Below are positions 1-23,106 of a stretch of DNA of 64,000 bases, piece after piece. The notes beneath the pieces are model-generated. The model was not told the origin of the DNA, ran no database searches, and saw only the letters and a program-made list of their open reading frames with translations. Every line of letters starts with the position of its first letter. The stretch's first letter is position 1. Position numbers and translations under genes: made by a program. This stretch comes from Candidatus Latescibacterota bacterium (GTDB lineage: Bacteria; Krumholzibacteriota; Krumholzibacteriia; WVZY01; JAKEHA01): assembly GCA_963707635.1 (NCBI GenBank), contig OY970173.1, positions 2,912,001 through 2,976,000 of the forward strand, given 5' to 3'.

Positions 1-3000
1 ATGCGCACCAGGTGCTTGTCTCCCGGGCGTTCCCACCGGTACTCGTAGCCGCCGTCGACGAAATACGACCCCGGCCGGCGCGCGCCCAGGCCCGCGGACA
101 GCGATAGGTATTCTTCGTCTTCGCGACCGGAGAGCGAGGTAAACGTCTCGAAGCCGAGAGTCGCGCTAGTCGCCGGTCCCAGCCGGAGCCTCTGCCGAAT
201 CCCGCTCACCGCACCCATGCGCGCGTCGTCCGCCGCGCGGTCCATCGCGTAGCGCGTGTAGGCCTGGGTGCCGCCGGGCGTGGTTCCTTCGACCCCGGCC
301 GTAATCTGATTGGTCGAGGGGCGGCCGCCCGCCGTGAGGTACTCGTGTGTCGCGATGGCGCGAACGCGCTTCGCGAGCGGCACTGCCAACACGGTCTTCA
401 AGCGGTTCGGGTAGTCGTCGACCACCTGGTCGCCCACGTTCTGCTCCCATGTGGTGGAGATCCCGGCGGTGCCGCGATTGCCGACGGTGATGCCGGTGAG
501 CACCAGGACTCCGTTCGCATCCTGCTGCGGCTCGTCGTGGCGCGCGAAGCGCAGCCCGGCCGACATCTCCAGCAAACGCCGGCGATAGTCGAGCGTGGCC
601 CGGGCGGTCTCGCGCTTTTCGTCGGTGCGCTGGAGTTCGTGCGTGTAGCCGTCGGCATTGAGCGCGAGCGACGGGGACAGGGCGAGGCGGCCGTCGAAGC
701 CCGCCTTGAGGCTCGCGAGCTCGCTGTCCGCCCCGCGGAACGACGGATTCACGAAGCCACCGTCGACGCGCCGCAGGTACATGTCGAGCTTGGAGGCCCC
801 GCGTTGCGCGCCGGCGCCGACCTTGTACGCGTTGCCGTTGCCCGTGAGGTCGTCTTCGCTGTGCGCGAACTCGCCGCTGAATCGAGCGGCGCCCAGACGC
901 GCGTCCCCGTCCACACCGAAGAGCGAGTAGCCGGGCGTGTCGCCCCCGTTCGCCACTGCGGTCACGCCGGCGCGATATCGGCTCCCCTGCACGACGTCGC
1001 CGCGCATGCCGTACAGGTACGCGCCGCTCACACCGGTCTCGGTCTCGTAGGTCACGGCAACGAAATTCGGGTTGAGCTCGCGGTCGGTCACCGCCACCGG
1101 CTCCATGAAGAGAATCGAGCCGTCGTAGGGGTTGATCGTGTAATCGCGCCGGCGAATCATGACCCGGGCCTCGAGGACTTCTTCCGTCTGGTAGCGATCG
1201 CGCGTCTCGACGATCACGCGCTCCGAGTTCTCGACGATCGGGGCGCTCGACAGGTAGTAGAACCCGCTGGTGCCGTCGGCGGGCATCTCGTCGGTGCGCG
1301 TGACGAAATCGGTTTCGGTCACGAACGCGCGCACGCTGTTCGCCCCGCTGGTGAGCGAAGCCGACAACCCCGTCACCACCTGGTGGTAGGTGAGAAACTC
1401 CCCGCGATCGATCGGGGTGGTGAAGTCGCCGTAGCGCAGGTACGATTGTTCGCGGTCGATCGACACGTAGTTGCCGCCGCGCGCGGGCGCGGCGTAGTGC
1501 ACCGACGACGCGTCGCCGTAGATCGGATACTGCTTCTCCGGATCGGGTTGCTTGAGCAACGGGTCGTCGTAACGCTTCTTGGTGTCGAGCCGGGCGGTGA
1601 CCTGGACCCCGCCCGGCGCGGCCCCCTGGACGAAGAGGCGCGACTCGGCTTCCACGTCGAAGCCATCGTGGTAGTTCGCCACCCCCTGCCCGCTGCCGTC
1701 GCCGCGCGTGTCGTACGCACCCATGGTGACGTCGACGATGCCGTCGGCCAGAAACGGACGCTCGGGGTTGACGAATACGACCTCCGTCTCCGCCCGCATT
1801 CCGTCCATCTCCACCGCCACCCGCCCACCGCCGGTCGCGTGCCGTGGCTTCAGGACCAGATTCACGATTCCCTCGCTGGTGGTCGCCTGCAGCCCGCGCT
1901 CGTCGGGCCGCGCGTCCGCGAGCGCGACCAGGTCCGCGCCCTCCGCGACCGTGACGACGATGCCGTCCATCACCGGCAGCCCGAACCCGTCGCGCACCGC
2001 GAAACGCAACGTGGTCGCGGTGTGGCCGTCCGCCGGAACCAGCGCGCGCGCGTCGAGCGGCACGAGCTCCGCCGGTTTCGACGAAAGCGCGACCCGCACG
2101 CTGTCGGACGCCTCGCCTCCGCGCAGCATGGTGGCGTGCGCGATCAGGTCATTCCAACCCGCGCGCACCCGCACGCCGAACCAGGTCGTGGTCTCTTCCT
2201 GGTGCGCGACGTCCACCGTGTGCTGCCCGACGCGGTCCTCGCCGACCAGTTCGTCGTTGACGCGCAACTCCACGCGGCTCCCGAGCGGATGGCGGACACG
2301 CACTGCCACCTGGTCCCGATCCCGCACGACCAAGCCGTCGTTCGGTTCGAGGATGGTGACGAGGCTGGCAGCCCCGGGTGGCGCCGGAGCGGGGTCCCCG
2401 GCGGGGACCAGGGCGATCTTCGCCGGGGCCGCGATTTCGGTCCACGAGAGCGCGTCGAACACCGCGCCCGGCGCGATCGCCGCGGTGCGCACGCCGGGTC
2501 GGACGACGGTCGTGTGCACGGAGCCCGAGTCGCCCGCCGCGGAATCGACCAGGGCAATCGCCGCGGTGACGTCGCGAACCAGGTGCGTATCCGGAGTCGC
2601 CGCGGTGAATGCGACCTGGCAATCGATGGCCCGTCCGCGTCTGAGCGACTCGAAGCTGAAGACGCCGCCGTCGGATGGCAGCGGGACCCGGTCGAGAAGC
2701 GCGCTGACGGTCACGTCCCCGAGCCCTTGCGGAACCTCGACCCGGAGGGTGCCGCGCTGGGTGTGTTCCGAGGTGGTGGTGAATCTCCAGCGCACGGTGG
2801 TGCGCGAGGAATCCGGCAACACCGAGAGATCGCGGACCGCGTGGCCGACGCGCAGCGTCGGGTCCGCGCCGTCGGCGGATGGCGGAATGAAACTCACCTC
2901 GACGCGGCGGTTGAAGCTGCGCCCGTCAGGCGTACCGTTGCCCGCCACCGGCCGGGTGTCCCCGTAACCGCGCACGACGATCCGGTCTCCGTCCACCCCC

Positions 3001-5138
3001 ATCGCGACGAGGGCGTCGCGCACCGCTTCGGCGCGCGCCACCGACAGCTCGTAGTTCGACGGGAAACGCCTGCTGCGCATCGGCGTGTTGTCGGTGTGGC
3101 CTTCGACCAGAGCCGCCCAGCCCGGACGGTCGAGCAGAAAGGCCGCCACCGGTCGCAGCCCCCGGTCCGCACCGACGACCAGCGACGCCTGGCCGAAGTC
3201 GAACTGCGAGCTTGGCAGCGTGAACTCGCCGAGCCGCACCCGTCGCGCGACGCTGACCCGCTCTTCGCACGCGAGCAGCGCGGTACGCGTGAGCGGCGGC
3301 ACCACCGGTTTGCGCAGCGGGAAGGCGACGCGCGCGTGGGCCGGAGCGATCAGGTGCACGAGACGCTCGTTGGGCCGGGGGGCGTGGCCGTCGCCCACAG
3401 CGGGTTCCACCAGTTCGACGCCGGCCGGGAGCGTTCCCTCGTCGAGGCGCACCAGGCGGTAGCCCTCGAACACGTGCGGAATCGAGAAGACTCCCAGCGA
3501 GTCGGTCACCGCGTACTCGCCGCTCTCGAGGTAGACCGAGACGTTCCCCACCCCGGGCTCGCCGGGGTCGCGGTCCCCGTCGCCGTCGTCGTCGATCCAC
3601 ACGTCACCGAGCAGAAAGCCCTCGATGCCAACTTCCTCGTTGTCGATGCGAATGGCGGCGACCACCGGCGCCGTTTCGACCGGATCGCCGGTCACTGCGC
3701 TGCCACGCGCCACCCCCGACACGCTGGCCCAGCCGTTGGGCTCGCGGCTGTTCACCGCGAACTTGACCGAGGTGGTGCGCGTCTCGCCGGGAGCCAGCGA
3801 CCCGACGGCCCACGAGAGCTGGTTCCCCGACCACGCCACCCCGCCCCCGGAGAGAAAATCGAGCGCCGGCGGCACCGACTCGGCGACGCGCACGTTGTCG
3901 ACGCGGATCGAGTCGGTGCGGTTGGTCGCGGTAACCACCATGGTCACGACGTCGCCCAACGACGCGGTCGCCTGCCGGAACGTCTGCTCGAGGCCGATCA
4001 TCGTGCGCGGATCGGGCACCGCCGCCAGGGCGAGCCGGCACGTCGTCCGGTTCGTGACCAGCGTGTCGAGGCGCGACTGCGCGGTGAAATCGAACGCGCG
4101 TATCGCGCCGAGCGCTGTGCGCAGCGGCGTCCCCGGGCTCGACACGACGAGGCGAAGCGACTTGATCTCTCCGGGCGCGAACGCGCCCACCAGGAACTTC
4201 CCGGGTTGCGGAGCCGGCGGGAACGGCACCCCGTTCACGTCCGTGCACACGACGCCGACGCCCGGCGGAAACGCGGCGGACGCGAATACCACCACGCTGT
4301 CGGCGTCGCCGGCGTTCTCGATGTCACCCGCGAAGGTCACGGTGTCATCCAGCACGCCGATGCCGACGGTTGACGCGTCGTCGGGCGATCCCTCGCCCCC
4401 GGGCAACGCGCGCGGGTTTCCCGCCGGCCCGAAGAACACCGCGGACACGAGCGCGCGACTGGTCACACGCACCACGGTCGCATCCGTCACGGGGGCCTGC
4501 GGCGCGAAAGCGGCGGCCGCGACACCGGGATCCCACGCGGAGGTCGCGCGCAGCTCGACGTACGCATCTCCCGCCGGGGCGGGCAGCACGAGTGCGACAT
4601 CCACCGGTGTCGAGAGACCCGCGCCGACCACGAGGAACGACGGGTTGTCTTCGCCCGCATCCAGCCGCCCATTCGCGTTGGCATCGCGGAAGAAGATCAC
4701 CGTCGCGGGCGAGATGGTCGAGGGTGGGAGACTCGTGGTCGACATCGCGACCGAGTCGGGCGCGTTGCCGAGGTTGTCGAGCGACAGCCGGCAGTAGACC
4801 GTATCGAACGGAGCCGCCTGCAGCGCGTACGCGGGCGTTGCCACCGTTCCCGGCGGAGTGATACGCAGGCCAAAGATCGTGAGTACGGGCGTGGAGACGG
4901 TGTTCGAGCCCGTCGCATTCACGTTCCCGGTGTCGGTGAAGACCGTCTGGGCGGTGTTCCGGATGTCGGTACCGCCGGGTGTGACCTGAGCGTGTGCGGG
5001 TTTCGAAGGCCAAAAAGCCAGCACGAACAGCAGCGCGAACAAGACGTAACGCGTTGCAGAAAAACGAAAAACGGCGAGTCCCCCCGCCGCGTTTACTGCC
5101 CGCCGCCAGTCGAAATTCTGCCGCGCTAGAGCCTTCAT
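1..5138 (-). CDS. Very large outer-membrane protein (>=1712 aa, 3' end outside window): signal peptide, N-terminal TPGGTDIRNTA extension, Ig/DUF11-like domains, SdrD-B-like domain, OmpA-C peptidoglycan-binding domain, C-terminal putative beta-barrel
   Basis: Hand translation from ATG 5138 (MKALARQNF...FALLFVLAFWPSKPAHA-QVTPGGTDIRNTA); the frame is still open at position 3 (...KHLVR). Motifs: GDVWIDDDGDGDRDPGEPGV (SdrD-B-like), VEGHTDN...SNYELSVARAEAV...GYGDTRP...NRRVEV (OmpA-C), YPIYGDAS...YGDF and alternating beta-strand patterns downstream. Absent from the ORF track because there is no stop; the + strand ORF 345..4373 is its antisense shadow. Start codon uncertain. Confidence 0.85.
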   Translation of the reverse strand, partial: MKALARQNFDWRRAVNAAGGLAVFRFSATRYVLFALLFVLAFWPSKPAHAQVTPGGTDIRNTAQTVFTDTGNVNATGSNTVSTPVLTIFGLRITPPGTVATPAYALQAAPFDTVYCRLSLDNLGNAPDSVAMSTTSLPPSTISPATVIFFRDANANGRLDAGEDNPSFLVVGAGLSTPVDVALVLPAPAGDAYVELRATSAWDPGVAAAAFAPQAPVTDATVVRVTSRALVSAVFFGPAGNPRALPGGEGSPDDASTVGIGVLDDTVTFAGDIENAGDADSVVVFASAAFPPGVGVVCTDVNGVPFPPAPQPGKFLVGAFAPGEIKSLRLVVSSPGTPLRTALGAIRAFDFTAQSRLDTLVTNRTTCRLALAAVPDPRTMIGLEQTFRQATASLGDVVTMVVTATNRTDSIRVDNVRVAESVPPALDFLSGGGVAWSGNQLSWAVGSLAPGETRTTSVKFAVNSREPNGWASVSGVARGSAVTGDPVETAPVVAAIRIDNEEVGIEGFLLGDVWIDDDGDGDRDPGEPGVGNVSVYLESGEYAVTDSLGVFSIPHVFEGYRLVRLDEGTLPAGVELVEPAVGDGHAPRPNERLVHLIAPAHARVAFPLRKPVVPPLTRTALLACEERVSVARRVRLGEFTLPSSQFDFGQASLVVGADRGLRPVAAFLLDRPGWAALVEGHTDNTPMRSRRFPSNYELSVARAEAVRDALVAMGVDGDRIVVRGYGDTRPVAGNGTPDGRSFNRRVEVSFIPPSADGADPTLRVGHAVRDLSVLPDSSRTTVRWRFTTTSEHTQRGTLRVEVPQGLGDVTVSALLDRVPLPSDGGVFSFESLRRGRAIDCQVAFTAATPDTHLVRDVTAAIALVDSAAGDSGSVHTTVVRPGVRTAAIAPGAVFDALSWTEIAAPAKIALVPAGDPAPAPPGAASLVTILEPNDGLVVRDRDQVAVRVRHPLGSRVELRVNDELVGEDRVGQHTVDVAHQEETTTWFGVRVRAGWNDLIAHATMLRGGEASDSVRVALSSKPAELVPLDARALVPADGHTATTLRFAVRDGFGLPVMDGIVVTVAEGADLVALADARPDERGLQATTSEGIVNLVLKPRHATGGGRVAVEMDGMRAETEVVFVNPERPFLADGIVDVTMGAYDTRGDGSGQGVANYHDGFDVEAESRLFVQGAAPGGVQVTARLDTKKRYDDPLLKQPDPEKQYPIYGDASSVHYAAPARGGNYVSIDREQSYLRYGDFTTPIDRGEFLTYHQVVTGLSASLTSGANSVRAFVTETDFVTRTDEMPADGTSGFYYLSSAPIVENSERVIVETRDRYQTEEVLEARVMIRRRDYTINPYDGSILFMEPVAVTDRELNPNFVAVTYETETGVSGAYLYGMRGDVVQGSRYRAGVTAVANGGDTPGYSLFGVDGDARLGAARFSGEFAHSEDDLTGNGNAYKVGAGAQRGASKLDMYLRRVDGGFVNPSFRGADSELASLKAGFDGRLALSPSLALNADGYTHELQRTDEKRETARATLDYRRRLLEMSAGLRFARHDEPQQDANGVLVLTGITVGNRGTAGISTTWEQNVGDQVVDDYPNRLKTVLAVPLAKRVRAIATHEYLTAGGRPSTNQITAGVEGTTPGGTQAYTRYAMDRAADDARMGAVSGIRQRLRLGPATSATLGFETFTSLSGREDEEYLSLSAGLGARRPGSYFVDGGYEYRWERPGDKHLVR

Positions 5139-5152
5139 CGCATATAACACGT

Positions 5153-5205
5153 TCGGCCGGCGCACGCGGGGGAGCCGTGTGGGCTCCACCCGCATGCGCG
5201 GCCGA
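5153..5205 (-). terminator. Strong intergenic stem-loop between the fibre-subunit gene and the outer-membrane protein gene
   Basis: Pairings tcggcc/ggccga, gcgca/tgcgc, gcggg/cccgc and ggagcc/ggctcc around a 5-nt loop; the C/A mismatch becomes a G-U pair in the minus-strand RNA. No clear U-tail, so it may be a stabiliser or attenuator. Confidence 0.55.
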
Positions 5206-5234: not shown

Positions 5235-7935
5235 CTACTGAATCCGGACTGTGAACCCGACCCCGGAGGTCGAGCTCGCACCGGCCAGGAGACTCCCCGT
5301 GAACACCCAGCGCACGTTGGTCACGTTCGCGTCGTATCCCGCCGGAGCTCCCCCGCCGCCGCTCGCCGGCGCGTAGGTCCAGGTGGCTCCGCTGTCGTCG
5401 GAATACTCGATCGCGATGGCGGTGACCGACGCCGGCGCCGTGCCGCTCGTCGCCGAACCCACCTGGAATTGCGTCCAGGTCGGAACCGCGTCGTAGATGG
5501 CGATCGTCGTGAGCGTCGAGCTGCCGAGGTTCTGGTAGTCCACGGTGTATGCGAGATCGGTCCCCGGCGCCTGAGCGCCCGCCGGGCTCACCGCCTTCGT
5601 CAACACCAGGTTGCCCGCCACGATGGTCGTGACGTCGGTGGCGTTGTCGGAGGCGAGGGTGACCTGACCGGTCGCCGTGAGCACCCCGATCTCGACCGTC
5701 CCCACCGTCGCCCCGGCCGGCACCGTGAGGCGCGCGGTCACGCTCGCACTCGCGCCCGGCGCGAGAGTCACGCTCGAAATCGGCGTGCTCGTCACGTCGA
5801 GGAACACGTAGCTCCAGCCCTGCGAGGAGACGTAGGTCAGGTCGAAGGTGTCACCGACATTGCCGTTGTTGGTCACCGTGTGCGCATACGTGATGGTCCC
5901 GCCGGCGGTGGTGTTGCCCGCGTTGTCGGGGTCGAAGAGCACCGACGCCAGCGTGTTCACCGTCACCGTGTTGGCGATGGTGTCGCTTTGCGTCGCGTTG
6001 ACCGTCGACGTGGCCGTAAACGAGGTTCCGTTGACGCCCGGCGCGGTGCCCGCGGGCACCGCCACGCGCGCGATGAGGTTGGTCTCGGCTCCGGAAGCAA
6101 CCACACCCGTCGAGGTGATCGGCGACACTTCGCCGGCGTCGAGGATGCCGTTGCCGTTCGCGTCGAGATAGAACACGACCGTCCAACCCGCGGGGACGGA
6201 CGAGGACAGCGTGAAGTTGTCGCTCGAACCGCCGCCGTTGATCACGTCGAGCGCGAAGTCGACCGACGCGCCCGGGTTGGTGTTCTGATTCACCGACGCG
6301 TTGTTGGTGGTTCCCGCCGCGCCGTCATAGTTGCCGATGTCCACCGTCGCGGGCAGTACCGCGTCGATGCGATCGGTGGTCAGGTTGTCCTCGGCCGGGG
6401 TGTTCGCGGACTGCGCGCGCACCACGGCGGCGAACGGGCCACCGGCCCCCTGCGAACCGGGAATGACCACCCGCACGACGATGTCGATCGACGCTCCCGT
6501 CGCGAGCGGGCCCACGTCGACGTTGCCGTCGAAGTCGGAATCCGAAAGCGGCGTGATGCCGTCATTGTGATAGAACAGCACCGACCACGAGCCGGGCACC
6601 GTCGACGAGCCATCGAGCACCACGTTGACCGCGTCGTTCGTGTTGCCGTCGTTGCGAATCGTGTTGGTGAAGTCGACCGACGTGTTGGCGTACGCGCTGG
6701 CGACACTCTGCAGGTCGTCGTCGTAGTTCGGCGGCGTTCCGGCGTCGGGGACGCCGGCCGGGCCGATCACCACTCCCGCGAGGATGCCGACGGTCACCGG
6801 CGCGTTGTTCGACGTGACGATGGTCGGGTTCGGCGTCACCACGTTGTTGTCGACGTAGGCCAGCGCCGCGGTGTTGTTCAACACGCCCGGCGTCATCCCC
6901 GCGACCACCGTGACCTGGTACGAGAACGAGTAGCTCTGCCCCGGCACGATGGCGCCGTTGGTCACGTACGCCACCGCGATGTCGCCGAAACCCGCCGCCA
7001 GCGACCAGTTCCACGTCTCAGGGCTCCCGGCGGTCGAGCTTCCGCTGGGCAGGTACAGGACCGTCCCGCCCGCGGGCGAGCCCGTCGGCGCCCCGAAGAC
7101 CGGGAGTGGATTGCCCGAGCCCGGATTCAGCGGGATCACGTCGTACATCAGAACACCCGTGAGGGCGACCGACCCGACGGTGACGCCGTTGGCGTTGTTG
7201 GTTCCGGAGTTCGATGCCCGTGAAGGTGTAGCTGATCTGGTCGCCGTCGTAGACCAGCGCGGGGGCACCCGTGAGGTTGGCCGTCATGACGGCGTCGTCC
7301 ACCACCGTGGTGCGGTGGTAGTTGCGCGTATCGATCTGACCCGCGTCACCCACGGACGTGCCCTGCACGCCGACGTAGGCGAGCTGGCCCGCGGTCGCGG
7401 TGCCCGGCACCGCGTAGGTGACGATAAGGCTCACCGACGTGCTGGCCGCGACCGGACCGAGGACGCCCGGTACCCCGCCGACGCTGATCGCCGGCTCGCC
7501 GCCGTCGACCACGCCGTTGCCGTTGATGTCGTGATAGATCGACACGTTCGCCAGCGCGATGGTCATGGTCGTGTTGACCGCATCGACCAGCGGCGCCAGC
7601 GTGTAGCTGTCGTTGTCGTTACCGGTGTTGGTGAGCGTATAGCTGTAGAACAGCGTCTGTCCGCCGATCGCGTTCTGGCTCATCGCCGGCGTGACCGGTG
7701 GCGTCTCTCCCGAATCGTCGGGAAGGATCGAGATGCCGTAGACCGGCAGCACCACTGTAATGACTTCGTTCGAAAGCGCGGTGTAGCTGTTGCCGACCAG
7801 GTCCTCGTAGGTCGCGGACGCGCGATTGCGAATCTGCGTCCCCGCCGGCGTCGTCTGCGCGAACGCAGCCGCCACGGAGAGCACGAGCACGAGGGTCAGG
7901 ACGAGCGGGAGGATCAGAAGGTGTCTGGTTTTCAT
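5235..7935 (-). CDS. Secreted multi-Ig-domain DUF11 (conserved repeat domain) protein, ~899 aa after correcting a +1 frameshift at 7217-7219; candidate fibre subunit
   Basis: ORFs 7018..7935 (signal peptide MKTRHLLILPLVLTLVLVLSVAAAFA-QTTPAGTQIRNRASATY) and 5235..7268 join as ...QISYTFT(A)SNSGTNN... if one G of ACGGGCA is removed. Repeated Y/FxxTxxNxGNxxDxxxL modules, DxNGNGxxDxGE Ca-binding-type loops, two DUF11-like domains. SD AGGAGG overlaps the upstream stop codon. Confidence 0.85.
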
Positions 7936-7947
7936 CTTCGGTTCCTC

Positions 7948-8433
7948 CTACTTGACCGTGGCCCGGTACGAGAACGTGATCTCGTCTTCGGGCTTCAGGC
8001 CGCCGGACAGCGTCCAGCGAATGTGGGTGATCATGTCCGGCGTCGCGTCCGCCCAGACCTCACGACCGTCGGCCGCCGCTTTCTTGAAGCGAACGGGCCA
8101 GGCGTGGAAGGTCTTGCCGCTGTCGATGCTGAACTGCACCGAACCTGCAGCCGGAGCCTTCGCGGTCTTTTCGACGTACTGGACGCCGGCGGGAACCGGG
8201 TCGACGATTGACACGTTGTGGACGGCCTCGGCGCCACCGTTGGCGTACGTCAGCCGGTATTCGATGACGTCCTGCGGACGGGCTTCGTCTGCAGGCAGGT
8301 AGACTTCCTCGCCGCGCTCGCCGACGATGACCTTCCGGGCTTCGATGGTGCCCGTGACAGGACCGGCGGCAGTGGCAGCGAGCGACGTGATCAGTCCGCC
8401 AACAAGGGCGAACAGGAAGAAAACGCGACGCAA
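7948..8433 (-). CDS. Small secreted single DUF11-like domain protein (161 aa), C-terminally truncated domain
   Basis: TTG start at 8433 with AGGAGG 7 nt upstream; signal peptide; PQDVIEYRLTYANGG...VSIVDPVPAGVQYV...THIRWTL...FSYRATVK-stop. Confidence 0.85.
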   Translation of the reverse strand: MRRVFFLFALVGGLITSLAATAAGPVTGTIEARKVIVGERGEEVYLPADEARPQDVIEYRLTYANGGAEAVHNVSIVDPVPAGVQYVEKTAKAPAAGSVQFSIDSGKTFHAWPVRFKKAAADGREVWADATPDMITHIRWTLSGGLKPEDEITFSYRATVK

Positions 8434-8845
8434 GGTGGAACCTCCTGAGTATCGAGAAGCCCACGCATCGGCGCGGGCGCACTCCTCCCATGCAAACCCG
8501 CGCGTCGGGCGCAGGCGCAACTTCTCGCGGGAGCCCGGGGGCAAGGGACGTTCCAGTCGTGGCCGGAAAGGGCGGGATGTTCCCGATGGAAGCGGATGAG
8601 GGAGGAATGTGGCGTCGCGGCGCGGCTTACGCGCGGTGACGGAGTGGCCGTCGGTGCCGCCACCGGGCGCATGACGGACTATCGCGCCCGCGAATGGTTG
8701 TCACTCCGCAATGCGGGCGCAGGGGGCCTTGCAATGTGCAATTCTTCCCAGTCGGGGGTGGCGCGCCAGGTGAGTCGGGACCAGCACGTCGTTCTCCGAG
8801 GAGCGCCGGGGGTCAACCTACAATATTCTAACGGCTTATGAATTG

Positions 8846-8875
8846 TTGAAAATTATACATAGCCTGTCCTATATT
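8846..8875 (+). promoter_or_regulatory. Sigma70-like promoter for the two-component operon
   Basis: TTGAAA-N18-TATATT in an AT-rich patch; ATG 8882 follows 6 nt after the -10 box. Confidence 0.5.
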
Positions 8876-8881
8876 CTGCAC

Positions 8882-9961
8882 ATGCCGGGCTCGCCTTCCA
8901 AACGCTGGCAGGTGGTCACACTCGTGGTGATCGGCGCCGCCACCGTATCGTTCCACTACGGCTTCTTGCTCCCTCGATCCATCGGGCATGGCAGCCTCGT
9001 CCACGTCATCCACGGGCGCCTGTGTTATGTGCCCATCATTCTGGCGGCGATCTGGTTCGGGGTACGAGGCGGACTCGCGCTTTCGCTCTCGATCACGGCG
9101 CTCACCCTGCCCTACCCGCGCCTGCGCGGGATTACCGACCACCACACGTTGATCGGCGAATACACCGAAATGGTGTTCTACGTGGCGATCGGCCTGATGA
9201 CCGGTGTCCTGATCGAACGCCAGTGGCGCGAGCGGGCGCGCGGCGAAGCCCTCCAGCGCGAGCTCGCGCGCCGCGAGCGCCTCTCGTCGCTCGGGCAGAT
9301 GGCCGCCGGCCTCGCGCACGAGATCAAGAATCCGCTCGGGTCCATCCAGGGCGCGGCCGAGATTCTGGGCGACGACGCGCCGGCCGATTCCCGCAGGCGG
9401 GAGCTGTTCGAGATCCTGCGCAAGGAATCGAAGCGGCTCGGGACCGTGGTCGACGACTTTCTCACCTTCGCGCGCCCGCGTCCGCTGTCGCTCTCTCCGC
9501 TCGACCTCGGTGCGGTGGCGGAGCGCGCCGCCGCGCAGATGAACATCGACGCCTCCGCGCGCGGCATCACCATCGAGCTCCAGCGCGCGCCCGACCTGCC
9601 CCGGGTGGCCGGCGACACCGAGCGGCTCCACCAGGTATTCTTGAATCTGCTCTTGAACGCGCTCGCCACCAGCGCGGACGGGGGCCGGGTGGTGGTGTCC
9701 TCGTTTCCCGCCGAGCGCGACGGCGCCGCGTGCGCCGCCGTGTCGGTGCGCGATTTTGGCTCCGGCATTGCGCCCGACGCACTCCCGCGCGTGTTCGACC
9801 CGTTCTTCACCACGCGGGAAAACGGGGTCGGCCTGGGCCTCTCGATATCGCACACCATTGTGCAGGAACACGGCGGCTGGATCGACGTCGACAGCGCGCC
9901 GGGTGCCGGCACCACGGTCACCGTCGTCCTCCCCGTCGATCGCACTCGCCATGGCGCATAG
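8882..9961 (+). CDS. Membrane sensor histidine kinase (NtrB/ZraS-like)
   Basis: Several TM helices, H-box LAHEIKNPL, N-box QVFLNLLLNA, DFGSGI, FDPFFTT, GVGLGL. Confidence 0.9.
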   Translation: MPGSPSKRWQVVTLVVIGAATVSFHYGFLLPRSIGHGSLVHVIHGRLCYVPIILAAIWFGVRGGLALSLSITALTLPYPRLRGITDHHTLIGEYTEMVFYVAIGLMTGVLIERQWRERARGEALQRELARRERLSSLGQMAAGLAHEIKNPLGSIQGAAEILGDDAPADSRRRELFEILRKESKRLGTVVDDFLTFARPRPLSLSPLDLGAVAERAAAQMNIDASARGITIELQRAPDLPRVAGDTERLHQVFLNLLLNALATSADGGRVVVSSFPAERDGAACAAVSVRDFGSGIAPDALPRVFDPFFTTRENGVGLGLSISHTIVQEHGGWIDVDSAPGAGTTVTVVLPVDRTRHGA

Positions 9962-11303
9962 TCGCATCCTGCTCGTGGATGACGACGAGAGCATCCGCAA
10001 GGTCCTCGGCTATATGCTCGAGGAGGCCGGCTACGCGGTCGAGTCCGCGCCGGGAGCCGACGCCGGGCTGCGACTCGCGGCCGAGCGGCGCCCCGACCTG
10101 GTCTTGAGCGACATCAAGATGCCGGGCAAGGACGGGCTCGAGCTGTTGCGCGAGCTCCGGGCTTTCGATCCGTCGATCCCGGTGATCATCCTCACCGCGT
10201 TCGGCACGGTGGGGACCGCCGTCGAGGCGATGAAGCACGGCGCGTCCGACTACCTCACCAAACCGATCGCGCGCGACGATCTATTGCTGACGGTGGCGAA
10301 GACGCTCAAGCTCCACCGCCTCGAGGCGGAAAACGAGGATCTGCGGGAGACGCTCCGCGACCGCTTCCGCTTCGAGAGCATGGTCGGGCTTTCGCCGGCG
10401 ATGACAGAGGTGTTCGCCACGCTGCGCAAGGTGGCGACCACCGAAGCCACCGTGCTAATTACCGGAGAGAGCGGGACGGGCAAAGAGCTCATCGCGCGCG
10501 CGATCCATTTCAACAGCCCGCGGCGCTCGCAGCGCATGGTCACGATCAACTGTGCCGCGATTCCGCACGACCTGCTCGAGAGCGAGCTGTTCGGTCACGT
10601 GCGCGGGTCGTTTACCGGCGCGATTCGTGACAAAGTCGGCAAGTTCGAACAGGCGCACGGCGGCACGCTCTTTCTCGACGAGATCGGGGCCACGCCGCTG
10701 GTGCTGCAGGTGAAGCTGCTGCGCGCCCTGCAGGAGCGGGAGGTCGAGCGGGTTGGCGGCGACGCGCCCATCCAGGTCGACGTGCGCATCGTCGCCGCCA
10801 CCAATCGGGCGCTGGCGACGCTGGTCGCCGCGGGCGAATTTCGCGAGGACCTCTTCTACCGGCTCAACGTCGTGCCGGTCCGGGTGCCGCCGCTGCGCGA
10901 GCGCGCGGGCGACCTCCCGCTCCTGGTCCGCCACTTCCTGGCGAAGTTCGCCGACGGCAAGGTCACCCTGACCCCGGAGGCGCTCGCGGCCCTCGAGCGT
11001 TATCGCTGGCCGGGGAACGTCCGCGAGCTGGAGAACTTCTGCGAGCGCATGGCGCTGATGCGCTCCCGCGACGTCATCGACGCCGCAGCCGTCGCCGCCG
11101 AGCTGGCGACGCTGGAGCGCGAGGCTCCGGCGGCGATCGGAGCCACCCTGCACGAAATCGAGCGCACCGCCATCGTCGAGGCGCTGCGCGCCAGCGGCTG
11201 GAATCGGTCCCGCGCCGCCCGCCGGCTCGGCGTCGCGCGCCACATCCTGCTCTACCGCATGAAGAAGTTCGACATTCGCGACGAGGGCGAGTCGGTGCGT
11301 TGA
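9951..11303 (+). CDS. Sigma54-dependent response regulator (NtrC/ZraR family; REC-AAA+-HTH)
   Basis: ILLVDDD...DIKMPG receiver; [32 protein letters not shown]-terminal Fis-type HTH. Confidence 0.95.
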
Positions 11304-11434: not shown

Positions 11435-11503
11435 TTCGTGCTAACCTCCCCAACTTGCGCGCGCGGCAGCGTGCGTGATCGTGTTTCCAGCCAGGGAGTG
11501 AAC

Positions 11504-14437
11504 ATGCGGCGCGCAGCGATCATCGCGGCATCTCTTCTTGCGGGCGCCGTCCCCGTCCACGGCGCTGACTACTTCCAACAGTTCGTGCATACCACCATCC
11601 GGGTGACACTCGACACCGAGCGCAAGTGGATTTCGGGCACGGAATCCATTCTCTACGTCAATAACTCGCCGGACACGCTGCGCCAATTCTATCTGCACCT
11701 CTATCCCAACGCCTTTCGCGACAACGACACCGCGTTCATGAAGAACCGGAACCGCCAGTACAACTGGACGCTCCTGGGCCTCCCGGATGCGAACCGAAGC
11801 TGGCTCGACCTTTCCAACGCGCGCGTGGACGGGACGCCGGTGGACGTGCGCGTCGACGACACCATCGCGAGCATGGCGTTGCCGCGGCCGCTCGCCCCGG
11901 GCGACTCCATGCGGGTCGAGTTCGCGTTCGACGGGAAAGTGCGCCAGGCGTTCGACCGCGCCGGCTACCGCGGCGACCACTACGACTTCGCCCAGTGGTA
12001 CCCGAAGGTGGTCGTGTACGACGAGCGCGGGTTCCACCCCGACAAGTTCCAGGCCGGCGAGTTCTACGGCGAATTCGGGACCTTCGACGTCCACATCGAG
12101 CTGCCGCAGCGTTTCGTGGTGGTCGCGACCGGCGTCGTCGAGAGCGGCGACCCCGGATGGGACTACAACCCGCCGCACCGGAAGCGCGGCGCGAAGACGG
12201 GCGCCGGCAAGACGCCGCCCGCGTCGGGGAGCAAGACCATCCACTTCCACGCCGAGAAGGTGCACGACTTCGCGTGGTGCGCGGATCCGACCTACGTCGT
12301 CCAGGACACGCTCCTCGACGGCATCGAGATCCGAAGCGCGTATCGGCGCCGGAGCGCGTCGACCTGGGAGGACTCGACCCTCGCGCACGCGATCCGCGCC
12401 GTCACCTGGCTGAACCGTCGCGTCGGCAAGTACCCGTATCCGCACATCACCGTCGCCGAGATGTTGCGTATGGGCGGGATGGAATACCCGATGCTCGCGA
12501 TGGACGGCCGCGCGACCGAGGGGCTCGCCTTGCACGAGATCGGCCACATGTACTTCTACGGGATACTAGCCAACAACGAGCGCACGGAGGCGTGGCTCGA
12601 TGAAGGCTTCACCACCTTCCAGACCCGGTGGTATCAGGAGCGGCACTACGGCCCGTGGGGCGACACCAGCCGGCGGAACTGGTACCAGCGCATCACCCCG
12701 CAATACCGGCTGTGGGAAGAGTACCAGCGGGACATCGTGGACCTGCACCGCCGTGGTTACGGCGAGCGGGTGTCGTACCGGGCAGAGGACTACCTCCACT
12801 CGTACCGGGTGAACGTGTATCAGAAGGCGGCCCTCGTCGTCCGCGCGCTGCGCTTCGCCGCCGGCGACGACGCGTTCGACCAGATTCTGCACCGCTACTA
12901 CGATGAGTGGCAGTTCAAGCACGTGAACGAGGCGCGTTTCCGCGCGGTGTGCGAGGACGTCGCGAAGCGCGACCTGTCCCGCCAGTTCGAGCAGTGGCTG
13001 CACACCAAGAAGGCGGTCGACTACGCGCTGACGCGCGTGCACTCGACGCCGGCCGCGAACGGCGTGTCGACCGACGTGGAGATCCAGCGCATCGGCGAGC
13101 TGTACTGTCCGATCGAGGTCGCCTTCACCCTCCCCGACGGGCGCGTCGAGAAGCGCCGCTTCGACGCGCGCGATCGCACGATCCGCCAGAAGGTGGAGTT
13201 GCCGGCAAAGCCGGTCCGAACCCAGATCAACCCGGACAACGAGATCATGGATATCGATCCATCGAATAACGTGACGCCCCGCCAGCGCGACTTCCAGATC
13301 GACTGGCCCAACAACTACTACTATCCCGCCGACGCCTACCAGATCCGCCATCGTCCCGCGATCTGGTACAACGACGTGGACGGCGCGAAGGTCGGCTACC
13401 ATTTGTCCGGGAGTCTCCAGGGCTGGAAGCACCGCGCGAACCTCGGCGTCTACTACGGCGTCGAGAGCGGCGAAACGGATTTTTCAGCGTCGCTGGACGA
13501 GCCGCTGCGCCTGCTGGGGAGCAACGCGACCCTGCACGCCTCGGGCTACAAGATGGAGGGCCGCGCGGACTGGAAGCTCGACCTGCGCCTGACCCGACGG
13601 TCGCATCTGCTCGACCCGCCCACGCACGAGTTGTTGATCGGCTACGGATACCACGAATTGCGCGACCCGCGGTACCTGACCAGCCCGGAGATCTACGACA
13701 CGCTGCAGGCGGACTCCGGCCCGTACTTCGGCTACACCGTCGACCCCCAGCTCGACATCGCGTCGATTCGCTTCGAGGCGAATCTGACGATGGGAAACCA
13801 GTGGTTCGCGGGCGAATACGACTACGAGCGTTTCGCGGCGAGTCTCACCCTGCAGTCGCGACCGAGCGTCGTGAAGGTGGATGCGCGACTGCGGGGGTTC
13901 GCGGGGTTCGCGGGAGGCGGCACCGCCACCTCGCGGAAGTTCAACCTGGCGGGGGCGGGACCGCTGCGCGCCGAGGAGCGATTCTGGCTCCGCTCACCGG
14001 GCGCCGTGCCGGAGGGCCTGCACTATCTGGAGCCCGGCGACGGCAACCTGCGCGGATACGCGGCGGGGACGTTCGGCGTGAACCAGCTGATGGCGCTGAA
14101 CGCCGAACTGGGAGGTCCGCTCGCGCTCCCGGGAATCAAGAAACTGCAGAAGTGGATCGGAACCCCGTCGCTGTACGGGTTCTACGACGTGGGATGGATT
14201 TTCGACAGCGTGAACCCGATCTCGACGAGCGCGCGGGTCGGGGCGCTGGTGGACGGCGGAATCCTGGACGACGTGCTCCAGGACGCGGGACTCGGGATTC
14301 GCTCCGCGGTGGCGTGGCCGTTCTGGAACTTCACCTGGCGTTTCGACGTGCCATTCTATGTAACGAATCCGGAAGTCAACGCCGAGAGCGAAACCATCGA
14401 CTGGCGGTACCTCTTCAGTCTGACGGCGACGTTCTAG
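11504..14437 (+). CDS. Secreted M1-family zinc metallopeptidase with C-terminal putative outer-membrane beta-barrel region
   Basis: Signal peptide; GGMEYP, HEIGH-x18-E (WLDEGF), YQKA; C-terminal ~370 aa of amphipathic strands with NLRGY motif, ending YLFSLTATF. Confidence 0.85.
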
Positions 14438-17059: not shown

Positions 17060-18600
17060 CGGGAGGCGCGGAGGTCGCGCCCCGTCATCTCGGCCGGCAG
17101 TTCGATCCCCAGATAATTGAGAATCGTGGGCGCGATGTCGCGCAGCGACCCGTCATCGATCAACGCGCCCCGATAATCCGCATCCACCAGGATGCAGGGA
17201 ACGGGATTGGTGGTGTGCGCGGTGTGGGGGCCGCCGGTGACGGGGTCGACCATCAGCTCGGCGTTGCCGTGGTCGGCGATGATGATCGCGACCTGACGGT
17301 CGAGGTCGAGAGCGGCGACCGCGCTGCCGACACACTCGTCCACGACCTCGCACGCCCGGATCGCCGCCGCGAGCACGCCGGTGTGGCCCACCATGTCGGG
17401 ATTTGCGAAATTGCAGACGATGTAGTCGTGCCGTCTCGCGCGGATTGCTTCCACCAGCACATCGCGCACCTGGTATGCGCTCATCTCGGGCTGGAGGTCG
17501 TAGGTCGCCACCCTGGGCGACGGAATCAGCCGGCGGGTCTCACCCGGAAATTCCTGTTCTTCGCCTCCGTTGAAGAAATAGGTGACGTGAGCGTACTTTT
17601 CGGTCTCGGCGAGCCGAAGCGTCGTCTTCCCCCGCGCCGCGGCGGTGTCCACCAGGATATTGGTGCGCAACTCGGGAGAAAACACGACCGGTCGATCGAT
17701 GGTATCGTCGTAGCGGCTCATGCACACGTAGTGCACGCGCGGATGCGCGACCCGTTCGAACGCCGGAAACGTCTCGTCGATGAAGGCGTGCGTGATCTGG
17801 CGCGCGCGGTCCGCGCGAAAGTTGTAGAACACCACCGAGTCGCCGTCGCGCACGAGCCCGCGCGGCGCGCCCGCGCCGTCCGCGATCACGACCGGTTCCA
17901 CGAATTCATCGGTGACCCCGGCCTGGTAGGAGCGGCGGACCGCCTCCCGGGCGGAGGCGGCGCGCAGGCCCTCGCCGCGCGTGAACAGGTCGTAGGCGCG
18001 GCGGGTTCGCTCCCAGCGTTTGTCGCGGTCCATCGCATAGTAGCGCCCCACGACGGTGGACACGGCGCCGAGCCCGATCGATTCCATGCGCGTCTCGAGC
18101 GCGGCCAGGTAGTTCTCCCCGCCGTCGGGAGCGGTGTCGCGTCCGTCGAGGATCGCGTGCACCCACAGCTCGCGCACGCCCCGGCGTTTGGCCATCTCGA
18201 TCAGCGCGTACAGGTGCTGCTGGTGGCTGTGCACGCCGCCGTCGGAGAGCAGCCCCATCAGGTGGAGCGCGCCGCGGTCGCGAACGCGGTCCATCGCCCC
18301 GGTCAGCGCCGCCATCCGCTCGAAGGAACCGTCGGCAATCGCGCGGTCGATGCGCACGATGTCCTGGTAGACCACGCGGCCGGCCCCGATGTTGAGATGA
18401 CCCACCTCGCTGTTGCCCATCTGTCCTTCCGGCAACCCCACCCACGGACCCGAGGCCTGGATCAGCGTGTGGGGATAGCGCTCCCACAGGCCATCCACGT
18501 TGGGCGTGCGCGCCTGCCGGACGGCGTTGGCCTCGACCTGGTCGCGCCAGCCCCAGCCGTCCATGATGATCAGCACGACCTGCTTCGAATGCGGTGTCAT
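17056..18600 (-). CDS. gpmI: 2,3-bisphosphoglycerate-independent phosphoglycerate mutase
   Basis: LIIMDGWG, GQMGNSEVGH, DGRDT, GRYYAMDRD, AETEKYAHVT, NPDMVGHTG, ADHGN. Confidence 0.97.
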   Translation of the reverse strand: MTPHSKQVVLIIMDGWGWRDQVEANAVRQARTPNVDGLWERYPHTLIQASGPWVGLPEGQMGNSEVGHLNIGAGRVVYQDIVRIDRAIADGSFERMAALTGAMDRVRDRGALHLMGLLSDGGVHSHQQHLYALIEMAKRRGVRELWVHAILDGRDTAPDGGENYLAALETRMESIGLGAVSTVVGRYYAMDRDKRWERTRRAYDLFTRGEGLRAASAREAVRRSYQAGVTDEFVEPVVIADGAGAPRGLVRDGDSVVFYNFRADRARQITHAFIDETFPAFERVAHPRVHYVCMSRYDDTIDRPVVFSPELRTNILVDTAAARGKTTLRLAETEKYAHVTYFFNGGEEQEFPGETRRLIPSPRVATYDLQPEMSAYQVRDVLVEAIRARRHDYIVCNFANPDMVGHTGVLAAAIRACEVVDECVGSAVAALDLDRQVAIIIADHGNAELMVDPVTGGPHTAHTTNPVPCILVDADYRGALIDDGSLRDIAPTILNYLGIELPAEMTGRDLRASR

Positions 18601-20825
18601 TGCCCTCCTCGAACGGCCGCGAGCCGCTTGAGATTTTCCTTCGCCGCCCCATTCTCCGGCTCGAGGCGCAGGGCTTCCTTGAACTCGCGCTCCGCGTCGT
18701 CATAGCGACGCGCGTTCGCATACAGGGCGCCGAGGGTGACCCGCGCGGTCACGTACCCGGGTTCGGTCTTGACGGCGCGCTCCGCGAACGGGATCCCTTC
18801 GTCGATCCGTTTGGTCTCGAGCATCATAACCGCCAGGTTGTTCATCGCGTGGACGTCGTCGGGCTTGAGCGCGACGCACTTTTTCAGGGCGGCTTCGGCC
18901 TGAGGGTATTGCTTCAGCCGTCCGTAGCACACCGCGAGATTGTTGTAGGCACTGTAGAAGTTCGGACGCAGCGCGATCGCCTGCCGGTACTGCTCGATCG
19001 CCTTCGCATACTCCCCCCGCTGCTCCCAGCGCTGCCCCAGGTTGTTCAGCGCGTCCGCGTTGTCCGGCGCCAGATATCCCAGCGCCTCCAGCTTCGCCAT
19101 CGTCTCCTTCGACGCACTGCTCACCGTCCCCGGATCCACCGGCGCCCGCGCCCGGTCCAGCGTGGCCACACTCTGCGCGCTGAACCTCGCCACCGCCTCA
19201 TCGGTAAACGCCGATCGCATCGCCTTGCCCGGCATGTCCTCCGCCCTCGGCAACCCCATCAGCGCCAGTACCGTCGGCGCCACGTCGATGATCGACGCCC
19301 CCTGGATCTCCGCTCCCCGCTTCACCCCCGCCCCCATCAACCCCACCATCCCCGTGAGTCGGTGCCACTCCGCCGCATTCCCCGCCCAGATCTCCGGCCG
19401 GTTCTTCAACCGCGACTCCCCGCTCTTGAACCCGTGGTCCGAGACCACCATCAACACCGTCTGCCCATCCATCTTCCCCATGACCTCGCCCAGGATCTCG
19501 TCCTGCAGCACGTACGCCTCCTCCACCGCGTCCCGGTAGCGCGCAAAGTCCGCCTCACTCACCTCCGCCGAGCGCGGCGGCGTGTGCAGCATGAACAAAT
19601 GACTCACCGCGTCCACCCACTCGAAGTACACCGCCTCCACATCCGGCCGGTCCGTCTCCCACACGTGCAACGCGATCCGCTTGAACGTCTGCGTCGACGC
19701 GTACAGATGCATCAACGCATTCACCGGATCCTTCGCGTCGAACTCCCCCCGATGCCGCGCCAGCTCCGCCGCACTCACGTGCACAAACCGCATCATCTCC
19801 GCATCCGACACCTCCCGCCCCTCCACCACCAACCCCCTCATCTCCCCCCACCGTTCCCTCGGATACAGACTCGTCGCCTCCGCCTGCGCCGTGTCCTTCG
19901 GCGCGTACGCCAGATACCCGAACTTGTCCGTCACCATCACCCCCTCGATCGCCTCCGCCGGGTCCGTCGCCAGCCACCCCACGATCGACACACTCCGTCC
20001 CGCATCCCCCAGCATGTTCCAGAACGCATCCACCTGGCGGTTCTGCCGCCCCACCGGCACCCGCGTCCCCGTCGCCACATCCACTACAAAAAAATCCAGG
20101 ATCCCGTGCTCCTCCGGCTCCCGCCCCGTCGCCATCGTCGTCCACAACAACGGCGAGAGCATCGGCTCCTCCGAACGCAACACCCCCGTCGTCCCCTCCC
20201 GCTTCAGCCGCGCAAAGTTCGGCAACCGACCCGCCTCCATCAGCGGCGTCAAGTTCGCCCAGTCCCCCCCGTCCACTCCCACAATGATCAACCGCCGCCG
20301 TTCTCCTCCTGTCTCCATCGTGCGATCGCCCCACTGCACCACCCGCACCTCCCCCACCGTGATCCCGTAGCCCGCCATCTCGTCGCGCACCCGCCCCGTC
20401 ACCGCGCCCCCAAACCCCTCCGGCCCCCTCGATGACTGGCTCCCCGCCGCCTCGATCTCCGCCGCCGCCACCACCAGCCGCCGAAACGCCGGCACAAACT
20501 CCCTCGAAAATCCCCGCTCCAGCGCCACCGACGAGCCCGCCGGGATCACGAGCCCCACCTCGAACGCCACCCCCAGCGAGTCCCCCTCTTCGAACAGCAC
20601 CGACGCCGACCCCACCGGCGGGATCCGGTACCTCTGCTCCCCGCTCGGGTAGCGTACCAGGCTCACCCCCGGCCCCACGTACGTCCACCCACGCACCACC
20701 GACACACTCCCGTCCCGCGTGATCCGCAACCCTTCCTCCCCACCCGGCACCCGCCGCAACCCCGCCGCCCCCGCCAACAGCCCCAGCGCCGCCAGCGCGA
20801 CCAGAATCAAGCGCGCGCGTTTCAC
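18597..20825 (-). CDS. Alkaline phosphatase superfamily (type I phosphodiesterase/sulfatase-like) protein with N-terminal TM/SPFH-like region and C-terminal TPRs, copy B (742 aa)
   Basis: IVGVDGGDW, SPLLWTTMATG, VVSDHGF, DVAPTVLALMG, LEALGY, then TPR repeats. Confidence 0.85.
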   Translation of the reverse strand: MKRARLILVALAALGLLAGAAGLRRVPGGEEGLRITRDGSVSVVRGWTYVGPGVSLVRYPSGEQRYRIPPVGSASVLFEEGDSLGVAFEVGLVIPAGSSVALERGFSREFVPAFRRLVVAAAEIEAAGSQSSRGPEGFGGAVTGRVRDEMAGYGITVGEVRVVQWGDRTMETGGERRRLIIVGVDGGDWANLTPLMEAGRLPNFARLKREGTTGVLRSEEPMLSPLLWTTMATGREPEEHGILDFFVVDVATGTRVPVGRQNRQVDAFWNMLGDAGRSVSIVGWLATDPAEAIEGVMVTDKFGYLAYAPKDTAQAEATSLYPRERWGEMRGLVVEGREVSDAEMMRFVHVSAAELARHRGEFDAKDPVNALMHLYASTQTFKRIALHVWETDRPDVEAVYFEWVDAVSHLFMLHTPPRSAEVSEADFARYRDAVEEAYVLQDEILGEVMGKMDGQTVLMVVSDHGFKSGESRLKNRPEIWAGNAAEWHRLTGMVGLMGAGVKRGAEIQGASIIDVAPTVLALMGLPRAEDMPGKAMRSAFTDEAVARFSAQSVATLDRARAPVDPGTVSSASKETMAKLEALGYLAPDNADALNNLGQRWEQRGEYAKAIEQYRQAIALRPNFYSAYNNLAVCYGRLKQYPQAEAALKKCVALKPDDVHAMNNLAVMMLETKRIDEGIPFAERAVKTEPGYVTARVTLGALYANARRYDDAEREFKEALRLEPENGAAKENLKRLAAVRGGQ

Positions 20826-23032: not shown

Positions 23033-23050
23033 GAGATGAATTCGTTTCAT
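20822..23050 (-). CDS. Same family, copy A (742 aa)
   Basis: ATG 23050 (MKRIHLILV...) gives the same length as copy B; protein identical except the first few and last ~93 residues. Confidence 0.85.
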   Translation of the reverse strand: MKRIHLILVALAALGLLAGAAGLRRVPGGEEGLRITRDGSVSVVRGWTYVGPGVSLVRYPSGEQRYRIPPVGSASVLFEEGDSLGVAFEVGLVIPAGSSVALERGFSREFVPAFRRLVVAAAEIEAAGSQSSRGPEGFGGAVTGRVRDEMAGYGITVGEVRVVQWGDRTMETGGERRRLIIVGVDGGDWANLTPLMEAGRLPNFARLKREGTTGVLRSEEPMLSPLLWTTMATGREPEEHGILDFFVVDVATGTRVPVGRQNRQVDAFWNMLGDAGRSVSIVGWLATDPAEAIEGVMVTDKFGYLAYAPKDTAQAEATSLYPRERWGEMRGLVVEGREVSDAEMMRFVHVSAAELARHRGEFDAKDPVNALMHLYASTQTFKRIALHVWETDRPDVEAVYFEWVDAVSHLFMLHTPPRSAEVSEADFARYRDAVEEAYVLQDEILGEVMGKMDGQTVLMVVSDHGFKSGESRLKNRPEIWAGNAAEWHRLTGMVGLMGAGVKRGAEIQGASIIDVAPTVLALMGLPRAEDMPGKAMRSAFTDEAVARFSAQSVATLDRARAPVDPGTVSSASKETMAKLEALGYLAPDNADALNNLGQRWEQRGEYAKAIEQYRQAIALRPNFYSAYNNLAVCYGRLKQYPQAEAALKKSLSINPRNYFAMSNLAVIYLETGQVADGMRVAEQAVEVEPGNANGHVTLGSAYLLSRRYDDAEREFKEALRLEPDNTEAKENLAQLDAARGRQ

Positions 23051-23106
23051 GAGTGGTGGTGAACAACGGGGGCGCGGAGCGGGACGCGCGTCGTGGTGCC
23101 ACACGA

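Follow-up and report, generated by a model that had tools for sequence, protein, structure and literature searches.

A lysine-free, acceptor-only DUF11 protein encoded ahead of a putative self-crosslinking pilus subunit: a candidate reversible holder of donor hairpins

Introduction

The triad of the CLIPPER (DUF11) domain consists of Lys715, Asp748 and Asn806 (PMC12617251). According to the accessible sections of the same paper some DUF11 domains have no isopeptide bond, and its supplement lists such bond-less domains, which may bear on the protein considered here; no split or acceptor-only form of the domain is described in those sections. In RrgB the known isopeptide lysine is Lys193 (PMC2886109). 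Among pilus chaperones FimC and PapD lend a strand to the subunit groove (PMC11821415), and the WxL chaperone ElrE (DUF916/DUF3324) is dedicated to a donor-strand pilus outside the chaperone-usher class (10.64898/2026.10.17.759780). When SpyCatcher is deprived of a triad residue it becomes SpyDock, which binds its tag reversibly (Kd 0.07–0.75 uM; PMC6465384). The DUF11 grappling hooks of Litorilinea (10.1101/2025.08.19.671072) and the haloarchaeal tafi (PMC11821415) were also considered and, as far as their accessible text goes, are different systems. A literature search combining DUF11/CLIPPER with isopeptide, donor strand and pilus, which covered few subscription papers, returned no description of the operon or of the gene (gene A) that are analysed below. 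They were found in a 64,000-nt stretch of a Candidatus Latescibacterota genome, referred to throughout as the window.

Results

An operon that holds the DUF11 domain in halves

The operon lies on the minus strand and comprises four genes in the order A, B, C, D (Table 1). The starts of B and C match positions 88–122 of a profile built from full DUF11 repeats, that is the last two strands with the Asn, while the ends of B and D match this profile from position 2 and stop near position 85. By these profile matches the operon holds the domain in two halves: B and C carry plugs, B and D carry locking sockets, and A comes in addition. Coupling analysis of 3790 complete repeats ranked the Asp–Asn, Lys–Asp and Lys–Asn pairs 1, 2 and 5. 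The long C-terminal region of C is probably an outer-membrane beta-barrel; a Pfam scan of the 1731 residues of C that lie within the window (all but the last 218) matched OmpA, DUF11 and SdrD_B, and none of the matches was to an usher family. Internally C has a complete DUF11 domain (about 3630–3990, minus strand) that by eye shows Gln and Glu/Ser near the Lys and Asp places, so that no bond would be expected there.

In this assembly the shaft gene B is split by one extra base near 7214–7216, a point absent from the preliminary description. This base is absent from contigs that are approximately 90–96% alike from three runs (two samples), and B is whole in most relatives, which points to an assembly error or a strain defect; breaks at other places of the same gene occur in two further loci (L006 and L031). 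Whether plugs are specific becomes a question in view of other operons, which have two or three distinct shaft-type genes; in one (L111:4241-5858, genome G228) two A-type genes in tandem are followed by three shaft-type genes.

Table 1. Features of the operon, numbered on the 64,000-nt window unless stated otherwise (residues of A are those of the predicted mature chain)
Feature	Position	Strand	Remarks
Gene A, exported lone DUF11/CLIPPER acceptor half (predicted)	7948..8433	-	161-aa ORF, TTG start behind GGAGG
Signal peptide of A, 23 aa, ending A-T-A-A	8365..8433	-	basic-hydrophobic-AxA leader, by eye
Ile7 of A, modelled at the place of the isopeptide-forming Lys	8344..8346	-	model superposition
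Lys11 of A, not at the reactive position in the model	8332..8334	-	Lys in 43, Arg in 21, other in 19 of 83 relatives
Extra hairpin 1 of A (12–24)	8293..8331	-	in all 83 relatives, by length; missing in the shaft acceptor of this operon
Asp55 of A, catalytic Asp place	8200..8202	-	Asp in only 33 of 83 relatives
Extra hairpin 2 of A (91–107)	8044..8094	-	insertion of hairpin length in all 83 relatives
Overlap of the A stop codon with the B Shine-Dalgarno (TAGGAGG), 12 nt before the ATG	7936..7950	-	sequence
Gene B, likely shaft	5235..7935	-	donor hairpin first, Lys/Asp acceptor last; intact copies of this lineage have 897–925 aa
Donor hairpin of B, Asn at 7825–7827	7750..7857	-	Asn invariant in 36/36 B starts; hairpin matches positions 88–111 of a full DUF11 profile
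C-terminal acceptor of B, Lys at 5595–5597, Asp at 5490–5492	5235..5618	-	both invariant in 32/32 aligned shaft acceptors
Gene C, runs off the window	1..5195	-	donor hairpin 4988–4884, internal DUF11, SdrD_B-like, OmpA domain, long C-terminal region
Gene D, acceptor-only with Lys and Asp, likely tip	G000:C1 about 2907426–2911400, outside the window	-	ends in a DUF11 domain

Identity, export and fold of A

Of the 159 candidates that searches with A produced, 117 are relatives at E ≤ 0.001. Almost all of these have 153–165 aa, and those with names came from Candidatus Krumholzibacteria/Latescibacteria; judged by these 117 sequences of similar length, A is a genuine gene. It scores above the cut-offs of both DUF11 (PF01345; 28.3 bits, cut-off 24.6) and TIGR01451 (37.5 bits, cut-off 24) and thus belongs to the family. 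A Pfam scan of residues 10–161, taken to E 0.1, found DUF11, DUF7507 and bMG10 alone; A has no extra domain, such as the adhesive one that is usual in tip subunits, which stay on the fibre. The mature chain, numbered from residue 1 at window position 8364, has 138 residues. No lipobox was found in a pattern scan of the 83 different A-type proteins collected from all fetched loci, and with its leader A has the features expected of a soluble protein exported by Sec.

AlphaFold2 modelled A alone with a pLDDT of 94.8 (135 sequences) and the last domain of B alone with 97.9 (32 sequences). The model of A superposes on the CLIPPER structure 9IFR with Z 8.2 and rmsd 2.0 over 88 residues, tied with other CnaA/Ig-like folds, and A is accordingly predicted to be a CnaA-like beta-sandwich. 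A solved member of the A family was not found by the wide VIA structure search, in which the top Z was 9.1 among common sandwiches, and Foldseek returned nothing at E ≤ 0.001. Against PDB sequences the A profile had no match and the single A sequence one weak, unrelated match. The ESM Atlas holds unnamed DUF11 clusters of 122–148 aa to which no function is attached. A search of 50%-identity representatives was dominated by long tandem-DUF11 adhesins, and the 7995 candidates scored for longer fused forms of A yielded generic DUF11 matches alone, which is weak evidence that such forms are absent.

Truncation point and position of the missing lysine

The preliminary description likened A to the C-terminal domain of the shaft subunit and considered both to be truncated at the same strand. 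Profile–profile comparison gives the resemblance a probability of 97.5–97.8% (E 5e-12 and 9e-13), and the motif pairs that had been quoted are all present in the two sequences. The truncation point could be placed by superposition: in 22/22 PDB entries that occur in both VIA lists (about 12 different proteins) the models of A and of the B acceptor end on the identical residue, e.g. 109 of 9IFR, 307 of RrgB and 372 of BcpA, and both stop before the reactive Asn (Asn318 in RrgB). The absence of a donor peptide is borne out as well, in that the mature chain opens at strand A, 66/83 relatives end one residue past the last core Val and the longest C-terminal tail beyond this Val among the 83 is 12 residues. 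In models and sequences A therefore is an acceptor without a donor of its own, as is the tip subunit of a donor-strand pilus. An isopeptide-bonded CLIPPER domain has in one chain a Lys in strand A, an Asp, and an Asn in the penultimate strand; A is not of this kind, with Ile at the Lys place, the Asn strand absent and the Asp present in this genome.

The Ile had been assigned to the reactive-Lys position with an uncertain register and a structural superposition had been suggested to settle it; in the models Ile7 is placed there. The start of A is offset from that of the B acceptor by exactly one residue in 22/22 shared entries. RrgB provides a positive control, since residue 2 of B falls on 187 and Lys8 of B hence on Lys193, and residue 1 of A also falls on 187; it is this control together with the one-residue offset that equates Ile7 with Lys193 of RrgB. 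On 9IFR residue 1 of B falls on 20 and residue 1 of A on 21, and if, as we assume, the entry counts a 19-residue tag then 27 is Lys715 and 118 is Asn806, which again aligns Lys8 of B and Ile7 of A with the reactive lysine. VIA reports the first and last aligned residues alone and the register assumes an ungapped first strand; the strand limits in the models (A 3–14/33–42, B 4–11/21–30) agree with Ile7 and with the K:I pairing, which comes from the coupling analysis of full DUF11 repeats of long adhesins. As the Z scores (7–8) reflect the common sandwich rather than kinship they were used for the register alone.

Sequence alone would also allow Lys11 to be the counterpart of the B lysine, and the profile–profile alignment of A with the B acceptor did not reach strand A. 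If Lys11 were the reactive residue A would act covalently, as a cap or terminator. The beginnings of A and B can indeed be aligned by eye with coinciding lysines, Lys11 is Lys in 91/135 close relatives and Asp55 is kept in this genome, but position 11 is Arg in 40/135 and other residues in distant relatives, the Asp is lost in 50/83, and the models place Ile7 at the site with a control that works; we regard this register as highly improbable. Covariation within the A family (206 sequences, effective 105) is noisy and broad over registers 45–49, with anti-diagonals 45, 47 and 49 raised (0.75, 0.96 and 0.77), and does not single out Ile7; the third candidate that it admits, Ala9, is also not a Lys. 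The models thus support an acceptor-only anatomy for A, its truncation point and the loss of its reactive lysine.

Conservation of A across phyla

The 83 A-type proteins comprise 36 from the Krumholzibacteria/Latescibacteria lineage, three from Marinimicrobia, 12 from Balneolota and 32 from Pseudomonadota. None of them has Lys at position 7 (Ile 26, Leu 19, Val 18, Met 16, Ala 3, Asn 1; hydrophobic in 82/83, a few distant rows possibly being misaligned by two), and Asp55 is replaced by Leu, Asn, Gly and others in 50 of the proteins. By simple patterns the C-terminal acceptors of the same loci have the Lys motif in 75/82 and the Asp motif in 80/82. A quick tree built from 45 of the 83 A-type proteins and 45 of 74 neighbouring acceptors separated the two sets by one branch (SH-aLRT 93; the branch was not starred). 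This split, with the lost Lys, the often lost Asp and the kept outline, suggests that A represents an old, dedicated subfamily that has lost its chemistry.

At 15/16 chosen core- or slot-facing positions the A family is hydrophobic in 83–100% of its members. Slot position 5 is Gly/Ser in 57/83 A-type proteins versus Leu/Ile/Val in the shaft acceptors (comparison made without rows 135 and 137, which are off by two residues), and this small residue could mean a weaker fit or a lost site. It is one of the points that favour a different role for A, in which it no longer binds hairpins, its slot being closed or covered by its own extra hairpins, and serves as a soluble accessory of the barrel (a plug or docking factor) or has a job of its own. 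The two family-specific hairpins found in 83/83 relatives, the confident model of the monomer and the solo copies of A in genomes where a barrel was not found (see below) would all fit such a role. The end point of A is nevertheless precisely that of true acceptors and hardly any tail follows it, its extra hairpins are short and charged, and its aligned length on 9IFR (88 residues, versus 89 for the B acceptor) gives no sign of extra strands replacing the missing ones. We consider a role of this kind rather unlikely.

Linkage and co-occurrence

The operon occurs in Krumholzibacteriota/Latescibacterota, Balneolota, Marinimicrobia and Pseudomonadota. In 74/83 loci the gene directly after A is of the donor type, i.e. 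it bears a hairpin. In the 151 genomes of its own phylum full-length A was found in 65, the barrel region (E<1e-70) in 70 and both in 63; 67 genomes were listed for A but two (G087 and G146) were dropped as partial matches in other frames. Two of the seven genomes with the barrel only were inspected; in one the contig starts inside B and the other (G064) has neither A nor B. The latter is a one-contig genome in which the barrel and tip genes are kept and A and B are missing upstream (L136, G064:C1:2882000-2901999). Among 401 Pseudomonadota genomes 30 have A, 28 the barrel (E<1e-100) and 25 both, and the three cases with a barrel only are all cut by contig ends. No operon with an intact shaft gene but without A was found among the loci examined. 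These counts come from related, draft genomes and no statistic is claimed for them. In 14 genomes of the Pseudomonadota sample the barrel region has only a remote counterpart (E 1e-16 to 1e-69), in frames that are mostly 1100–1700 aa long, and A has no match; these perhaps represent a second system.

A without the barrel was found in 4/30 of the A-bearing Pseudomonadota sample genomes (G266, G279, G416 and G547; genome completeness not stated), and one query detected no shaft gene in them. In the family of G266 (61 genomes) 38 have A, 32 the barrel, 29 both and nine A only, and several genomes hold a second, more distant copy of A away from the operon. A is far from shaft and barrel in G549 and G346. 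A-type genes also stand alone among housekeeping genes at L124:8185-8781, L127:11793-12311 and L117:9440-10582. A donor-profile search of five genomes with a solo or detached A gave no match, but as it also missed the shaft gene of G549 this shows nothing. The proposal made in the preliminary description, that A binds donor peptides reversibly and prevents premature polymerisation, does not account for the A genes of genomes in which a barrel was not found.

Gene order also bears on the possibility that A is a non-covalent end cap or initiator, which would bind whichever hairpin is left free at the fibre end, that of the first or of the last shaft subunit, and stay on the fibre. The acceptor-only anatomy resembles that of a tip subunit, two operons (L122 and L123) have no other acceptor-only gene nearby, and in G419 A is the last gene of the operon. 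Several operons, the present one included, have a Lys-bearing acceptor-only gene with large extra domains (D here, and L113, L125, L126, L128 and L143), and with D at hand the role of a loose cap would be redundant here. In a covalent fibre a cap without a bond would moreover be the weakest link, extra domains are absent from A, and in the 74 loci noted above it precedes a shaft-type gene. We consider it unlikely that A is such a cap.

Stop/Shine-Dalgarno overlap and neighbouring genes

The overlap of the stop codon of A with the Shine-Dalgarno of the subunit gene is present as first described, with its 12-nt gap. The translational coupling that had been read from it finds support in 24/36 loci of this lineage, which share the overlap, but not beyond, where the gap between A and B is mostly 36–370 nt and a single locus (L090) has the overlap. 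Coupling was therefore rejected as a family trait, the overlap being specific to the lineage, and since A is also detached in some genomes it is not taken as part of the mechanism. A sigma-54 consensus was not found upstream of A in the window, and a loose pattern detected sigma-54-like sites upstream in 8/83 loci. Divergent from the operon (8843–11303, plus strand) lie genes for a histidine kinase and a sigma-54-dependent response regulator, and similar frames are found upstream in L006 and L013.

Two features elsewhere in the window may be recorded. At about 11500–14437 (plus strand) an M1 peptidase is fused to a long C-terminal region with no Pfam match, and 18597–23104 (minus strand) holds two tandem phosphodiesterase/sulfatase-like plus TPR genes that share an identical 1400-nt block, either a very recent duplication or an assembly artefact.

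Discussion

We prefer, with about as much confidence as doubt, the reading that A is a putative reversible periplasmic holder of donor hairpins. A self-welding fibre needs protection from welding in the periplasm. B would polymerise by plug-in-socket insertion with a spontaneous Lys–Asn bond, and as its subunits would react wherever a plug meets a socket, a soluble socket without the Lys is what a reversible block would need; SpyDock is an engineered example (PMC6465384). D would cap one end of the fibre. C, the one protein with a plug but no socket, would terminate the chain at the membrane, much as if the platform had its own built-in terminator, a comparison drawn from chaperone-usher pili. 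After export by Sec, A would shield two hairpins, that of B and that of the barrel protein C, which is tethered, and subunits would in this way be kept from locking prematurely to each other or to themselves. The hairpin would then pass from A to a Lys-bearing socket at the outer-membrane platform. Given that the Lys–Asn bond is irreversible this exchange would be one-way and A would be freed. From the topology of the chain the two extra hairpins of A would be situated at the pole from which the protein that bears the plug runs on, and they may hold on to this protein or serve for docking to the platform.

The shared truncation, the loss of the lysine as placed with its control, the position of A before a donor-type gene, the co-occurrence with the barrel, the separate branch of the A subfamily, the hydrophobic core- and slot-facing positions, the engineered precedent of SpyDock and the presence in this operon of a Lys-bearing acceptor-only gene for the tip all count in favour of a holder. 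Counted against it are the A genes in genomes where a barrel was not found, the confident fold of A on its own, which would also suit a closed fold (although the B acceptor models likewise), the Gly/Ser at slot position 5, the L122 and L123 operons, which leave a cap role open, and the covariation that does not single out Ile7.

Taken further, and with somewhat more doubt than confidence, A could be an inverse pilus chaperone, a natural non-reactive catcher that would cap the Asn plugs of all subunits, that of the platform-tethered one among them. It would so determine when a self-crosslinking pilus of two-membrane bacteria, widespread and as yet undescribed, is assembled and how long it becomes, and the covalent bond would be the ratchet that displaces A. 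The barrel occurs in 28/401 sampled Pseudomonadota genomes and in as many as 32/61 in one family. With the operon present in four phyla a test of the holder idea is within reach, the materials being a 15-kDa protein and a 36-residue peptide. If it is true, A solves the problem of premature welding by hiding the plug, where the pilus chaperones considered here lend a strand to the groove, and the operon provides a natural pair of tag and catcher that join covalently, along with a partner for their reversible capture.

How A compares with known systems can be stated as follows. Like FimC and PapD it is small, predicted to be periplasmic and encoded with strand-exchanging subunits and a large outer-membrane protein, and like them it would stop subunits from joining before they reach the platform. 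The polarity would be reversed, as A lacks an Asn-bearing hairpin and any strand that it could lend, and would instead receive the hairpin of the subunit. PapD and FimC are two-domain (PapD_N/PapD_C) proteins, whereas A is a single DUF11 domain of 138 residues without a Pfam chaperone match, and in contrast to chaperone-usher pili its fibre is predicted to be locked covalently. ElrE, unlike A, is membrane-anchored and primes its subunits by donor-strand complementation, and in the accessible text it is confined to Bacillota and a sortase-anchored fibre (10.64898/2026.10.17.759780). BsaA of Clostridium perfringens (PMC11580942) and the archaeal threads (PMC9715654, 10.1101/2022.04.26.489512) combine donor strands with intermolecular isopeptide bonds, as predicted for B, but have TasA-like or thread folds and belong to monoderms and archaea; no lysine-free acceptor or outer-membrane barrel was found described for them in the accessible sections of these papers. 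With 9IFR, A shares the CnaA-like fold, a Pfam match above the cut-off and the same layout of strands A–E, but 9IFR is a complete stalk repeat of one long adhesin with an intramolecular Lys715–Asn806 bond (PMC12617251), whereas A is a free protein that lacks the last two strands and the Lys. SpyDock (PMC6465384) and DogTag/DogCatcher (PMC8878318) are, like the system of A, split isopeptide domains; these were engineered from Gram-positive adhesins, and A would be their natural counterpart without the Lys and often without the acid.
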